This document shows, piece after piece, positions 22,554 to 27,037 of a stretch of DNA of 28,052 nucleotides. This DNA is from Phycisphaerae bacterium (GTDB taxonomy: Bacteria; Planctomycetota; Phycisphaerae; SM23-33), in contig JAOZNE010000004.1 in NCBI GenBank assembly GCA_029933955.1, forward strand, positions 1-28,052, written 5' to 3'. A program made the position numbers and the translations under genes. Within the stretch, counting starts at the first letter, position 1; each line of letters begins with the position of its first letter. The notes beneath the pieces are model-generated. The model saw only the letters and a list, made by a program, of their open reading frames with translations. It did not search any database and was not told where the DNA came from.

Positions 22554-23621
22554 ATGCGAGTTTGTTTTATAGGCCCAAGTCAATCGGGCAAAACTGCGTT
22601 GTTCGCAGCCGTAGCTGGGGCGGGCGGGTCGAATGTGGATATATCCAGGCCAGACCAACCCCACCTGGCAGTGGTGAAAGTGCCCGATGCGCGACTGGCC
22701 TGGCTGAGTGAGCTGTACAATCCCAAGAAGACCACCCCCGCTGAGCTGGAGCTGCTGGACCTGCCGGGGATGGACCTTTCCGACGAAGCAGGCCGGGCCC
22801 GGGCCAAGGCCCATTGGCCCGCGATTCGACAGTCCGACATGCTGGTTTTCGTTGTGCGGAGTTTCACCAGTGACGAAGCTGCGCCATATCGAGGCCGGGT
22901 TGACGCCGCAGCTGATGTGCGGGAGTTGCTGGGAGAGATGCTCTTTGCCGACCTGGAACAGGTTACCGCACGGGTCGAGAAACTCGCCGACGCTGTGAAA
23001 AGACCCACGCCCAAACGCGACGAACAACAACGCGAACTGGAGCTGATGACCAGGCTCCAGGACGCTCTGGAAAACGAAACGCCGATATCCCAGGCTATAA
23101 AAACCGAGGCTGAGGATAAGCTGATTCGCAGCTTTGGGCTGTTTTCGCAGAAGCCCGCTCTGGTGGTGGTAAACTGCGACGAGGACGATCTAGCTGGGGC
23201 TGACACTATCGAGTCGTTGCCAGCCTTGCGACTTTCAGCCCGGATCGAGCAGGAGATATCCCAGCTGCCGCCGGAAGATCGCAACGAGTTCCTGGCGGAC
23301 CTGGGCCTGGCTGAGCCAGCCTGCGACAGACTCATCCGAGCCTGCTATCAGCGGATGAAACTCATCAGCTTCCTCACCAGCGGCCAGGACGAGTGTCGCG
23401 CCTGGACGATATCAGCAGGCACAGAGGCCGTAGAGGCAGCTGGGAAAATCCACTCGGATATCGCGCGGGGATTCATTCGCGCAGAGACAGTTGCCTACGA
23501 AGACTTTCACGCAGCCAAGGGCAGTATGAAAGACGCCAAAGCCGCGGGAAAAGTACGGCTGGAGGGCAAGACCTACTCAGTACAAGACGGCGATATCATA
23601 AACTTCCGATTCAATGTTTGA
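22554..23621 (+). CDS. ychF: YchF/Obg-family P-loop NTPase with C-terminal TGS (DUF933) domain, divergent
   Basis: GPSQSGKT P-loop, VKVPDARL, DLPG, RAWTI, AAGKIHSDIARGFIRAE, RLEGKTYSVQDGDIINFRFNV; GGAG RBS. Confidence 0.85.
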   Translation: MRVCFIGPSQSGKTALFAAVAGAGGSNVDISRPDQPHLAVVKVPDARLAWLSELYNPKKTTPAELELLDLPGMDLSDEAGRARAKAHWPAIRQSDMLVFVVRSFTSDEAAPYRGRVDAAADVRELLGEMLFADLEQVTARVEKLADAVKRPTPKRDEQQRELELMTRLQDALENETPISQAIKTEAEDKLIRSFGLFSQKPALVVVNCDEDDLAGADTIESLPALRLSARIEQEISQLPPEDRNEFLADLGLAEPACDRLIRACYQRMKLISFLTSGQDECRAWTISAGTEAVEAAGKIHSDIARGFIRAETVAYEDFHAAKGSMKDAKAAGKVRLEGKTYSVQDGDIINFRFNV

Positions 23622-23624
23622 ACG

Positions 23625-23697
23625 CCGCAACGTTTGGGATAACCCGCCAGTAAAACGCGCAGCGTTTTACTGGTCGGCGTTCATCCCGTTGTTATGC
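23625..23697 (-). other. Integron attC site (73 bp)
   Basis: Minus strand GCATAAC-AACGG-GATGAAC-GCCGACCAGTAAAACGC-TGC-GCGTTTTACTGGCGG-GTTATC-CCAAAC-GTTGCGG: R'', 5-nt spacer, L'' with extra G, central stem with one bulge, L', 6-nt spacer, R'. Confidence 0.88.
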
Positions 23698-24291
23698 TTT
23701 TCTTCACGCTTTCCGGGAATAGACACTCGGACAAAATTGTGACCAAATCTGATGTTAAAAATACTGGTCATAAGCACAAAATTATCGACGGTTCCTGCTA
23801 CGTGTTCGATTATTGAAGAGGGGAACGAAAGCCTGCCGGAGGCGACGTAAGTCGGCCATGGAAAGTAGCGACGGCGTAAGAGTGTGACATGATAAACATC
23901 ATCGTTTTCGGAATGAAGAACATCCTCCATCATATCATCCAGTAGTGGGTCGCCGCCGTAGCCGCCAATCGTGGCGTTCTTTGTGATACGACCATACGCA
24001 TCGAGGAAAAGAGGGAATAATGTGCGTGCTTCTTCATTCCACCACGACCGAAAAGTATATTCCTTATTAAAGTCGTCGGGACGGGTAATGAGATAATTCT
24101 TGAGGTACGCGAACATCTTCCGCTCGTACGTCTTGCGTGTGGCAGGGCTGACATTGTAACCGACGACGTCTATTGCGTTGCCTTCGGCAAGGCGCCGCAC
24201 CAAATCGGTTTCCTCCTCGTTGGTGAGAACGATATGAATACCTCTATAACTCCAATAGAACATAATGTAATCTTATCTCCCTAAAGCATAA
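23631..24291 (-). mobile_element. Integron gene cassette (single), no intI in window
   Basis: Begins G|TTATGC at 24292-24286, the exact complement of the attC R'' GCATAAC; one promoterless ORF; ends at the attC G|TT. Confidence 0.82.
23667..24263 (-). CDS. Hypothetical cassette protein (198 aa)
   Basis: Fills the cassette, has GGGAG upstream and its stop lies within attC; visibly more AT-rich than neighbouring genes; no family recognised. Confidence 0.75.
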   Translation of the reverse strand: MFYWSYRGIHIVLTNEEETDLVRRLAEGNAIDVVGYNVSPATRKTYERKMFAYLKNYLITRPDDFNKEYTFRSWWNEEARTLFPLFLDAYGRITKNATIGGYGGDPLLDDMMEDVLHSENDDVYHVTLLRRRYFPWPTYVASGRLSFPSSIIEHVAGTVDNFVLMTSIFNIRFGHNFVRVSIPGKREEKHNNGMNADQ

Positions 24292-24319
24292 CAGTTATTC
24301 TACGACGTTGATTCTTTGG

Positions 24320-24348
24320 AGATTAGCATGGGGCGGAGTCAGATGCAA
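24320..24348 (-). promoter_or_regulatory. Putative Pc-like sigma-70 promoter facing the cassette
   Basis: TTGCAT (24348-24343), 17 nt, TAATCT (24325-24320) with an extended TGn, about 28 nt before the crossover G|TT. Confidence 0.4.
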
Positions 24349-24413
24349 CACTGACTGTATGACTGGTTTTTTGGCTGTAAAACGGGTGGTTGTCGCATGA
24401 TATGCTGTGTATG

Positions 24414-24446
24414 AAAAAACCGCGCCGCAGGGCTGGTGGCGTGGTT
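24414..24446 (-). terminator. Possible intrinsic terminator after the tkt/DUF2442 unit
   Basis: AACCGCGCC...GGCGTGGTT 9-bp stem flanked by A6 on + (T run on minus); one pair is a mismatch on the minus strand. Confidence 0.35.
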
Positions 24447-24502
24447 ATGTTATTTGACAGAAAGATTAGTTTTGGGGTGCCGATTGTTTTTTATCAAAAA
24501 GA

Positions 24503-24633
24503 AAATCCGTGTAATCTCTTTTTAATCCCGTGAAATCCGTGGACTCCTTTTTTCCTATTGCCTATTTGCCTATTTGCCTATTGCCTATTGCCTATTTGCC
24601 TATTGCCTAATCCCTACTTGCCTATTTGCCTAC
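24503..24633. repeat. Composite repeat: CACGGAT block plus (TAGGCAA)n heptamer tract
   Basis: ATCCCGTGAAATCCGTGGACTCCTTTTT at 24525-24552, then about 10 CCTATT(T)G units at 24554-24633. Confidence 0.9.
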
Positions 24634-24925
24634 TTGCGTGTCTTGAGCCAGCGGTCTAGCGACGATTGACTTTCACCAGACGGTTGCCCCGCAACGAGAC
24701 CAGCTACGCTGATGTCCTCGTCGAGATCAGGCCAGTGTATTCCCTCTCCACGCCCAATAAGACTATAATTCTCCCGCTCTGATGGGAGGCCATGCAACAG
24801 TCGTGGATACCATGCCAGCGGGACAGAAATTGTGCGCCCGTCAGTAAGCTCAACCGTGAGGTTGTCCGCGGTTACAGACACAGACTGCGCAACAGAGATT
24901 TTACTTCAACAGCCAAAGTATTCAT
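24630..24925 (-). pseudogene. DUF2442 family protein (antitoxin-like), frameshifted near the 5' end
   Basis: LTDGRTISVPLAWYPRL and GEGIHWPDLDEDISV motifs. ATG 24925 gives MNTLAVEVK and then falls out of frame at an A4 run; adding one A restores MNTLAVEVKISVAQSVSVTADNLTV. A GTG restart at 24881 is possible. Confidence 0.6.
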
Positions 24926-24983
24926 CCCGTGAAATCCGTGGACTCCTTTTTCACTATTGCCTACTCCCTATCTGCCTGTTGCC
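24924..24983. repeat. Second copy of the composite repeat
   Basis: Identical 28-mer at 24924-24951, followed by degenerate CTATTGCCTACTCCCTATCTGCCTGTTGCC. Confidence 0.88.
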
Positions 24984-24986
24984 TGA

Positions 24987-26936
24987 TCAAACTGATCGGT
25001 CGAAGAGTTTTTGCGCGGTTTTGGCGATGTCCCTGGCGGTCAGGCCTGCCATTTTCAGCGTTTCTTCTGGCGAGCGTGTGCTCTTGGGAGGCTGGGTTAC
25101 GCACATCGTTTCGACCATTACGCCGAAGTCGCTCTTGGCTGCGGCTGCAGCTATCTCGTCGCCGAACCCGCCGGTAAAATTGTCCTCGATAACCAGTATC
25201 TGTCCGCGATTATCGTCGCCAATCCGGAGAATCTCATCAGTCGCCAACGGCAGTGCATAAGCGTCGATTAGGCTGACGCTCAGGCCGGCCTGGTCTTCGA
25301 TCATTTTGGCAGCCTGTCGCGCGACGGAGACCATATACCCGCTTGCCACGATAAGCAAATCCTCGCCGTCGAGGAGCAGCTTGTATCCGTCGAGCGAAAA
25401 TTCCTCGTTCTCTTTGTAGATAAACGGCACGTTTGGGCGGTGCGTCCGCATATAGCACATGCCGTCGATATTGGCCATCAGCTCGGTCAGCTTGAATGTG
25501 CTGATAGCGTCGGACGGCTGGAACAGGCGGATAGCGGGCTGGCCATCGGCTCGGGTTGCATGGGCGAAGCTGCGGAAGAACGCCACGTCGGGCAGCCCCA
25601 TTTGGCTTGGCCCGTCCGCGGCCAGGCTGATGCCCGCGTGCGAGCCTACTATTTTGACGTTCGAGTTCGTTATCGACGCCATCTCGATTTGGTCGTATGC
25701 CCGGACGATGAACTTGGCGAAGCTCGACGCGAACGGGATTTTCCCGCCACTGGCCAGGCCCACCGCAGCGGATATCATGTTCTGCTCCGCTATCTTGGCT
25801 TCGAAGAATCGCTCGGGGTATACCTCCTCGAACATGTTCGCAAAGGTCGAGCCTTTCACGTCGGCGTCCAGGCTGACTATCCTGCTGTCCGCTCCCATAG
25901 CTGCCATCGCTGCGCCCCAGGCCTGGCGGGTGGAGAGCTTCTTTTTCTCCAACGCCTTGTCAAGCCCGGCAGCCCGGAGAGCCTCGGCGAACGAACCAGC
26001 TGAGATATCCCCGACGCTGTGTTGCGTAGCTGGGAGAGGCTCTTTCAGCTCGTCGATGTCCTCGTCAGCCAAGTCCGCTACGCCCAGTTCCTCAGCCTTG
26101 ACGTCAAGCTCCCCCAGGGCACTGGCCAGGTCGTCCTGCCCCAACGCCTTGCCGTGGGATGTGGTTTTTTGCAGCTCAGCCACGCCCCAACCCTTGACGG
26201 TTTTGGCGACGATAGCGATGGGCCTGCTGCCAGGCTCAGCTGCGGTGGCTTCGAAAATATCGTGCCAGTCGTGGCCATTGATTGTGCGGACTTCAAAACC
26301 AAACGCTTCGAGCTTCCGCCCCAGTGCGTCAGCTTGCTGTTGCGGCGAGACATAGTCGCTCTGCCCCTGGCCGTTGCAGTTGAAAATCGCGCGCACGGCG
26401 GTGAGTTTGTGGTCGACGATAAAGTCCAGCGCCTCGGAGACCTGGCCTTCTCTGCTCTCGCCGTCGCCACAGATGCAGAAGAATTTTCGGTCGCTGCCGT
26501 CGAGCCTGGCTGCCAGCGCAAGCCCCGCTGCGACGGAAAGTCCCTGTCCCAGCGAGCCTGTCGCCGCGTCGAAAAGCGGCATGCCGATGGCGGGGTTCGG
26601 GTGGCCATCCAATACGCTGTCAGCTGCCCGCAGGCTCACAGCGTCGTTGAACCGCAGCTGGGACGCCTGCTCGGGGAAACCCACAATGCCCCCCAGGTCG
26701 CAGTAGGCAGCGTAAATAATCGGCACGGCATGGCCTTCGGATAGAATCAGCCTGTCCGAACCCGCATTCCAGGGGTTTTTCGGGTCGTATCGCATCTGGC
26801 GATACATCAGGGCTGTTACGATATGAGCCAGCGACAACGAGCTGGAAGGGTGCCCCGTGCCAGCTTCGCTGCACATCCGCACCACCTGCTTGGCCAACTT
26901 TATGAGTTTTCGATCCAGTGCTTTATATTTAGCCAT
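24987..26936 (-). CDS. tkt: Transketolase (single-chain, animal TKT-like subtype)
   Basis: Start MAKYK at 26936 after GGAG; GHPSS, GHA, GHP, ATGSLGQG, GDGE, IAEQNM, SHAGISLAADGPSQM. Confidence 0.93.
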   Translation of the reverse strand: MAKYKALDRKLIKLAKQVVRMCSEAGTGHPSSSLSLAHIVTALMYRQMRYDPKNPWNAGSDRLILSEGHAVPIIYAAYCDLGGIVGFPEQASQLRFNDAVSLRAADSVLDGHPNPAIGMPLFDAATGSLGQGLSVAAGLALAARLDGSDRKFFCICGDGESREGQVSEALDFIVDHKLTAVRAIFNCNGQGQSDYVSPQQQADALGRKLEAFGFEVRTINGHDWHDIFEATAAEPGSRPIAIVAKTVKGWGVAELQKTTSHGKALGQDDLASALGELDVKAEELGVADLADEDIDELKEPLPATQHSVGDISAGSFAEALRAAGLDKALEKKKLSTRQAWGAAMAAMGADSRIVSLDADVKGSTFANMFEEVYPERFFEAKIAEQNMISAAVGLASGGKIPFASSFAKFIVRAYDQIEMASITNSNVKIVGSHAGISLAADGPSQMGLPDVAFFRSFAHATRADGQPAIRLFQPSDAISTFKLTELMANIDGMCYMRTHRPNVPFIYKENEEFSLDGYKLLLDGEDLLIVASGYMVSVARQAAKMIEDQAGLSVSLIDAYALPLATDEILRIGDDNRGQILVIEDNFTGGFGDEIAAAAAKSDFGVMVETMCVTQPPKSTRSPEETLKMAGLTARDIAKTAQKLFDRSV

Positions 26937-27037
26937 CTTGTAAGTTTCTCCTGATTGTATAGTCGTGGTAAGATATCGTTCTATCAAAGATTTGGTACCT
27001 TACCGCACAGAGGCCAAAAACGCAATAACCAAAAAAA

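Follow-up and report, generated by a model that had tools for sequence, protein, structure and literature searches.

A likely docking site for integron cassettes without a linked integrase, between ychF and tkt in the chromosome of a Phycisphaerae bacterium

In this paper we describe a single integron cassette of 661 bp, with one attC site, which lies in the 1.36-kb interval between the convergent genes ychF and tkt (transketolase) on a 28,052-nt stretch of DNA (the window; contig JAOZNE010000004.1 of assembly GCA_029933955.1) from a Phycisphaerae bacterium. We consider it likely that this interval holds a chromosomal docking site for integron cassettes, reading AATAACTG/TTGCGGCG on the minus strand (here and below the slash marks the crossover point), which has no linked integrase and is served in trans or from unassembled DNA. 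A lone attC without an integrase nearby is termed a SALIN and a group of two or more a CALIN. With its one cassette, one attC and an orphan gene of 198 aa, the window locus is therefore a SALIN: all the tested hallmarks of integron cassettes and of SALINs are present (of CALINs in the strain variant that we call C), whereas the adjacent integrase and the kin-like attI of a complete integron are lacking. The type of element is already known, and what is noteworthy is the base-exact evidence that one natural site without a linked integrase has held several different cassettes.

The source is a metagenome-assembled genome (MAG, below G000) of an uncultured hydrothermal-sediment bacterium, with an assembly of 2.34 Mb in 450 contigs that is 90% complete.

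Results

The cassette and its attC site

The sequence statements of a preliminary description, made from the letters of the window alone, all proved correct: the 73-nt attC, the 661-bp cassette, the cassette start TTATGC that matches R'', and the presence of the listed motifs. We also agree with its view that the cassette at this G/TT is complete, of integron type, and equipped with a genuine attC. The crossover lies between 23631 and 23630, 9 bp past the ychF stop codon (23619-23621). The first bases of the cassette, TTATGC, are the exact complement of GCATAA in its own R'', and the cassette has a GC content of 47%, lower than that of the genome (55%) and of the flanking genes (59%).

On the minus strand (23697-23625) the attC reads GCATAAC-AACG-GGAT[G]AAC[G]CCG[A]CCAGTAAAACGC-TGC-GCGTTTTACTGG-CGG-GTT-ATCC-CAAAC-G/TTGCGG, with bulged bases in brackets. 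Its boxes are R'' GCATAAC (23697-23691), L' GTTATCC and R' G/TT, the spacers are 4 nt and 5 nt (CAAAC) long, and the L'' arm, which is the 5' arm of the top strand, has three bulged bases, G, G and A. Position 3 of R'' is an A and so departs from RYYYAAC, a departure that is the rule in the integron attCs of the same family. As single-stranded DNA the site folds with -23.7 kcal/mol (z = -5.2), which none of 200 shuffles equalled. When every AAC...GTT-flanked interval of the 2.34-Mb assembly was folded, no bulged, attC-like hairpin came up apart from the window attC, and the remaining strong hairpins are near-perfect palindromic repeats. A hairpin with GCATAAC at C99:1519-1579 of G000 lies within an open reading frame (ORF) and was rejected as a chance occurrence.

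Strict scans for RYYYAAC...GTTRRRY did not pick up the window attC, because its R'' carries the A at position 3 and its R' is a hybrid with the target. RNAalifold found no consensus structure on a MAFFT alignment of the attCs, so the structure was set by hand from the common geometry and checked by pair counts. Fourteen independent attCs share the geometry R''(7)-4 nt-L''(4 bp, one bulge, 2 bp)...L'-5 nt-R'(7), in which 82.6% of cells are paired against 22-45% with slid partners, and the covariation score was reached by 0 of 500 shuffles. The covariance model R1, built from 14 other attCs with the window site excluded, recovers exactly 23625-23697 on the minus strand over its full length, with 24.4 bits (E 8.5e-4); the second-best match in the window has 12 bits. 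On the whole assembly the window attC is the only match at E<=1, with an E of 0.07. A score below the threshold of an attC model, which the preliminary description had named as evidence against its reading, is thus not what we find. Rfam holds no attC family and no family that matches the window site. No second attC was found in the upstream flank of the cassette by folding, or elsewhere in the genome by the hairpin scan and R1.

Different cassettes at the same junction

The strain variants that we compared are contigs from public metagenomes that share ychF almost to the base, with 297-299 of 300 nt identical. The site occurs in four occupancy states on these contigs, A to D. State A is the cassette of the window, and is found in six contigs (L010, L077-L080 and L082) and in Logan contigs of runs X2 and X6; one X2 contig spans 23466-24464 without any difference from the window. 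State B (L088) has a 477-bp cassette instead, TTGGGT...ACCCAAC, with a 129-aa ORF, between the same left and right flanks as in the window. Its left flank is identical to the window over 60 nt, ...AGAATAACTG/, and then continues with the TTGGGT of the different cassette. The attC of cassette B has R'' ACCCAAC, L'' GCAT[T]CACCCT and the spacer TTAAC, followed by G/TTGCGGCGTTCA. Its start TTGGGT complements ACCCAA of its own R'', so that this rule holds for both complete cassettes.

State C (L087) is cassette B with another attC before it, and is therefore an array of at least two cassettes with two attCs, the upstream one reading GCATAAC-AA-GCGGCT[C]AAG[T]CTG[A]CACG... (z = -4.7). In state D (L071, L073, L084) an hsdS-prrC-hsdM operon is followed by 28 nt, a fourth attC (GCCTAAC-AACA-GCAT[G]CA[G]CGG[A]CGGCGC...) and the same right junction. 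A contig of run X11 matches the window up to 23632 and departs from it beyond that point in the manner of D.

The 40 nt past the crossover are the same in the window, L088, L087 and L071, despite the different attC before the junction. The right junction is base-identical in all four states, and in two of them, A and B, so is the left junction. All the cassettes are in one orientation, with GC contents between 38% and 55%. The left flank is unbroken from the cassette through the terminator-like hairpin to tkt in states A and B (the window, L010, L077-79 and L088). Records from JGI, ENA and Logan that stem from different studies agree on the variants. Different cassettes at the same boundaries, which the preliminary description had asked for as a test, were thus observed: another cassette between identical flanks in L088, and further ones at the right junction in L087 and L071.

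The congener G001, of the same genus, shares only ychF and shows no synteny on either side. A sister species (L096:5834-7991, L097:1788-4899) has a ychF that is identical at 271 of its last 300 nt. There the gene ends in TAA, not TGA, and is followed by TAGGCAA repeats and palindromes, with no cassette site and with other neighbouring genes.

The target site and its left flank

The target reads ACTG/TTGC and so has the 5'-GWT-3' (G/TT) in unstructured double-stranded genomic DNA. Its positions +6 to +9 are GCGT and not the hot-spot motif CRGM of IntI1, which was defined for IntI1 in E. coli and is of uncertain relevance elsewhere; CGGC is found at +4 to +7. The left flank comprises about 125 nt between the terminator-like hairpin and the crossover. 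It shows no attC-like fold (z = +0.18), and its local alignment scores with four attI regions beside the intI of same-family genomes stay within the range of shuffles. The word GAATAAC stands just left of the crossover and a direct repeat, GAATCAAC, lies 14 nt upstream; as a speculation from these words, both are candidate integrase-binding boxes.

The junction is genomic (attG-type) by sequence and attI-like by behaviour. This behaviour is seen in the two different single cassettes between the same flanks, and in variant C, which is variant B with one cassette added on the left. The attI-like junction of the preliminary description therefore stands in so far as cassettes are swapped there, and fails in so far as the left flank has neither similarity to attI nor an attC-like fold.

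The Pc-like promoter of that description, TTGCAT-17-TAATCT, was not supported: it agrees with the consensus at 7/12 positions, which is not better than chance, and lies below the threshold of our promoter scan (9/12 positions). In this region the scan found 2 promoter-like sites, where shuffled sequence would give 2.2. Since there is no excess, the site TTTACA-16-TACAGT that faces the cassette is a lead only.

Search for an integrase

An integron integrase was found neither on the contig, nor in the MAG, nor in G001, its only congener (6 contigs), with the model TIGR02249 at its cut-off of 265 bits, in line with the absence of an integrase that had been described for the window. The best score in G000 is 142 bits. 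Its three tyrosine recombinases are XerC-like, XerD-like, and a third without the insertion of about 40 aa that is specific to IntI. The third (C296:195-1100 of G000; L002) is encoded on a 1.1-kb contig, and its 142 bits on the integron-integrase model are above the scores of the Xer proteins.

Integrases above the cut-off occur in 6 of 91 other genomes of the same family, mostly in one genus (g19). Beside one of these intI genes the array begins with ...GATACATTG/TTAGC and the attCs read GCATAAC...ACGTTATGC. This box pair has 11 matches in the family, at or near IntI genes, against 0 in a reversed control. The counts show that the R'' of the window, with its A at the third position, and the cassette start TTATGC are a signature of the integron cassettes of this lineage.

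Cassette cargo

The 198-aa protein of cassette A has no match in Pfam, NCBIfam or PADLOC. It has only three homologues, at 99%, 46% and 43% identity, with conservation up to about residue 182, and is absent from the 91 other same-family genomes searched; no attC was found in the contexts of the two distant homologues. Its AlphaFold model has a mean pLDDT (predicted local distance difference test) of 50 and is unusable. The neighbours of the protein in the ESM Atlas form a heterogeneous set with few features in common and gave no lead to a function.

The 129-aa protein of cassette B (L088:7150-7536, minus strand) belongs to an unannotated family, 65-78% identical across MAGs of Verrucomicrobiota, Desulfuromonadaceae and Planctomycetota, mostly on short contigs. 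In a Desulfuromonadaceae MAG (L101:5943-6461) the gene lies between two attCs with the same ACCCAAC and GTTGGGT boxes. Judged from these sequences, it looks like a widely travelling cassette gene.

The cargo of state D (L071:308-3766; also in L073 and L084) is a type I restriction-modification (R-M) system with a PrrC anticodon nuclease (PrrC 1e-123, HsdM 3e-120, and an HsdS domain). More than 3.6 kb and at least three genes of this locus are seen, and as relatives have hsdR upstream, hsdR is probably part of it too. The operon may be a giant defence cassette with its 5' boundary beyond the assembled contigs. A homologue search with HsdS gave no identical full-length protein, its nearest relatives being in R-M loci of other organisms.

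Other features of the locus

The coordinates of the features are collected in Table 1. The ychF gene is 81% identical in the congener. The hairpin at 24418-24446 is, by its sequence, likely to be the terminator of a tkt/DUF2442 transcript upstream of the cassette. On the plus strand (23675-23700) the attC hairpin and the TTATGCTTTT behind it look like an intrinsic terminator shortly past ychF, and each alternative cassette would thus give ychF a different terminator-like hairpin.

Table 1. Features of the window around the ychF-tkt interval
Feature	Position	Strand	Basis and remarks
Cassette A, 661 bp, TTATGC...attC...G	23631-24291	-	Limits read from sequence, between two G/TT points
attC, 73 nt	23625-23697	-	Fold and covariance model R1
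Cassette ORF, 198 aa	23667-24263	-	Sole ORF of cassette A; last 10 codons extend into attC
GGGAGA, Shine-Dalgarno-like motif	24276-24281	-	12 nt before ATG, within cassette; read from sequence
Right half of target site, TTGCGGCGTTCA	23619-23630	-	Overlaps ychF stop codon; reverse complement of stop and next 9 bases
Left flank of insertion point, ...GAATCAACGTCGTAGAATAACTG/	24292-24417	-	Left half of reused site; constant flank ends ...CGTCGTAGAATAACTG, junction CGTCGTAGAATAACTG/TTATGC
Promoter candidate, TTGCAT (24348-24343)-17-TAATCT (24325-24320)	24320-24348	-	7/12 positions; below scan threshold
Promoter-like site TTTACA-16-TACAGT, facing cassette	24354-24381	-	9/12 positions
GC-rich hairpin then TTTTTT (minus strand)	24418-24446		Terminator-like site; sequence
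ychF, redox-regulated ATPase YchF family	22554-23621	+	ORF; Pfam YchF-GTPase_C 4.7e-35; convergent with cassette
DUF2442 gene, outside cassette	24630-24881	-	Pfam DUF2442 7.9e-22
Transketolase (tkt), housekeeping gene on other side	24987-26987	-	Pfam Transket_pyr, Transketolase_N, Transketolase_C

The DUF2442 gene lies in a 399-bp unit (24525-24951) bordered by identical 28-mer direct repeats, each beside TAGGCAA-type repeats. Exactly this unit is missing from strain contig L010. The locus thus has a second presence/absence polymorphism, one not of the integron type, at a distance of 240 bp from the cassette. The TAGGCAA and CACGGAT repeats of the window reach a Logan word depth of 500-2250x and are thus multi-copy elements. 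G000 also contains several families of long near-perfect palindromes (CACGGATTACACGGATTTT..., CTACGAAAGACGCGAAAAAACGCG..., CACAGCCGCCCTCGGCTGTG..., CCAGCACTTATTTGC...), for example at C91:1773-1850, C143:96-181, C253:1-87, C154:10386-10491, C379:2894-3001, C107:2127-2229, C431:2091-2188, C154:12772-12848 and C170:17309-17385, and in the window at 24453-24626.

Discussion

The exchange of cassettes at the ychF-tkt slot suggests how the site may be used. Circular cassettes would be inserted and removed by recombination of the IntI type. The integrase would bind the folded bottom strand of the cassette attC together with the double-stranded genomic site, one strand would be exchanged at G/TT, and replication would resolve the junction. 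Strand exchange at G/TT between an attC and a genomic site would fix the orientation of the cassette. For cassette A, the junction of the circular form would read ...CCCAAACG/TTATGC.... The integrase was probably supplied in trans, by a part of the genome that is not assembled, by a mobile element, or by a past donor lineage, and variants may later have passed between strains by homologous recombination of the flanks. A cassette would be expressed by read-through from tkt/DUF2442 or from weak promoters within the left flank of 125 nt.

The preliminary description had named two origins for the cassette, service in trans and a lost integron. As different cassettes are found at an identical junction, which acts like an attI, service in trans is favoured over a dead relic. 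It seems improbable that the locus is what is left of a sedentary chromosomal integron whose adjoining intI-attI platform was deleted, with the leftover variants shuffled among strains by homologous recombination. Loss of intI can produce CALINs and SALINs (Cury et al. 2016, as related in bioRxiv 10.1101/2022.09.11.507474), integrons exist in the same family, and variant C has at least two cassettes. However, no remnant of an integron was seen: the contig carries no fragment of intI, the cassette and DUF2442/tkt are only about 340 bp apart (a stretch made up mostly of a terminator and repeats), the left flank is unlike the attI of relatives, and the congener also has no IntI. The two different single cassettes between identical flanks moreover require at least one precise site-specific exchange at the junction after any such loss. 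It is also difficult to see the single cassette of the window as a reduced form of an ordinary chromosomal integron, with intI and attI just beyond the assembled contigs and with C and D extending left to this platform, and we regard this as very unlikely. The contigs of C and D do break within the array, and cassette arrays and intI are often unassembled in MAGs, but the left flank is continuous to tkt in the window, L010, L077-79 and L088 and leaves no room for intI, and there is no IntI anywhere in G000 or G001.

There is hardly any chance that the locus has nothing to do with integrons, the hairpins being terminators or palindromes like the repetitive extragenic palindromic (REP) elements, and the variable genes a strain-specific islet exchanged by homologous recombination. 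Such an explanation could draw on the richness of the genome in palindromic repeats and on the position of the attC hairpin between convergent genes, where terminators are expected. Four different hairpins, however, have in common an R'' of the RYYYAAC type, the arm that carries the bulges, the spacing and an end in C-GTT, whereas the palindromes of the genome are near-perfect and without attC features. The starts of the cassettes complement their own R'', the boxes are identical to those found in attCs in the vicinity of true IntI genes, and the match to R1 is unique in the genome.

There are several points which weigh against a docking site that is served in trans. Firstly, no empty site, for which the preliminary description had suggested a comparison of relatives, was found in any contig, Logan run or relative. 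Secondly, with a MAG that is 90% complete and in 450 contigs, intI may simply have been missed in assembly or binning. As for C and D, their contigs break within the array before the left ends are reached, and a larger array or an integron may lie there. The strain differences may have spread by homologous recombination and not by repeated site-specific events. Several of the assemblies are possibly re-assemblies of the same samples and not fully independent, so there may be fewer independent observations than contigs. And lastly, R1 was built from few attCs and is biased towards the lineage, its E-values are rough, and the genome-wide E of its match is only 0.07.

Many features of the locus are those of known elements. 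Loot et al. describe how cassettes insert at genomic GWT sites (attG), by the single-strand exchange and replicative resolution that we propose here, and how they are excised again where they had landed, and also report SALINs, attG hot spots with attI-like frequencies and cassette expression from resident promoters (bioRxiv 10.1101/2022.09.11.507474). The window locus resembles the SALINs and small CALINs that arise by attC x attG recombination (Loot et al.; categories of IntegronFinder 2) in its single attC, its one promoterless coding sequence and the lack of an integrase nearby, and also in its target, a 5'-GWT-3' (here G/TT) in ordinary double-stranded DNA between housekeeping genes, with no attC-like fold. 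In contrast to these, at least three to four alternative cassettes occur here at the same natural site with base-identical junctions, so that the site behaves like a standing attI and not like a one-off landing, and the right motif CRGM of IntI1 at +6 to +9 is unmatched (GCGT).

With the attI of a complete integron the site shares the appearance of new cassettes where a constant left flank meets the first cassette, the crossover at G/TT, and the AAC-containing word GAATAAC left of the crossover, which is placed like an L box and would be a putative binding site. It differs from an intI-Pc-attI platform in having no adjacent intI, no similarity to the attI of the same family and no promoter above chance. 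The chromosomal integrons of genus g19 agree with the window in their R boxes (GCATAAC and GTTATGC), in the lengths of their spacers and in a bulged base that follows the fourth pair of L'', but their arrays start at an attI divergent from intI, their L boxes and loops differ, and the genus of the window has no detectable IntI.

Defence systems are known to be carried as integron cassettes (bioRxiv 10.1101/2024.07.02.601686; 10.1101/2024.07.02.601719). Such defences are reported to be compact, with few or no long loci of several genes among them (bioRxiv 10.1101/2024.07.02.601686). The cargo of variant D is likewise an anti-phage defence closed by an attC, but with more than 3.6 kb and at least three genes it would be unusually large if it is one cassette.

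It is possible, though less likely than not, that this species, without an integrase of its own, keeps a fixed, attI-like orphan slot between two housekeeping genes, which visiting integrases repeatedly load and unload in the wild, and which has even captured a type I R-M/PrrC operon as a giant cassette. Such a slot would be a natural standing attG hot spot and a minimal integron platform. To our knowledge, there are laboratory demonstrations and genome counts of cassette insertion outside integrons (attG sites, SALINs), and the repeated use of a site in natural populations has been largely without evidence. The ychF-tkt junction offers a natural site for studying trans-acting integrases, the determinants of attG hot spots and cassette-borne defence, including an unusually large example. 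It also gives a warning for annotation, as small orphan genes beside housekeeping genes in MAGs can be integron cargo.

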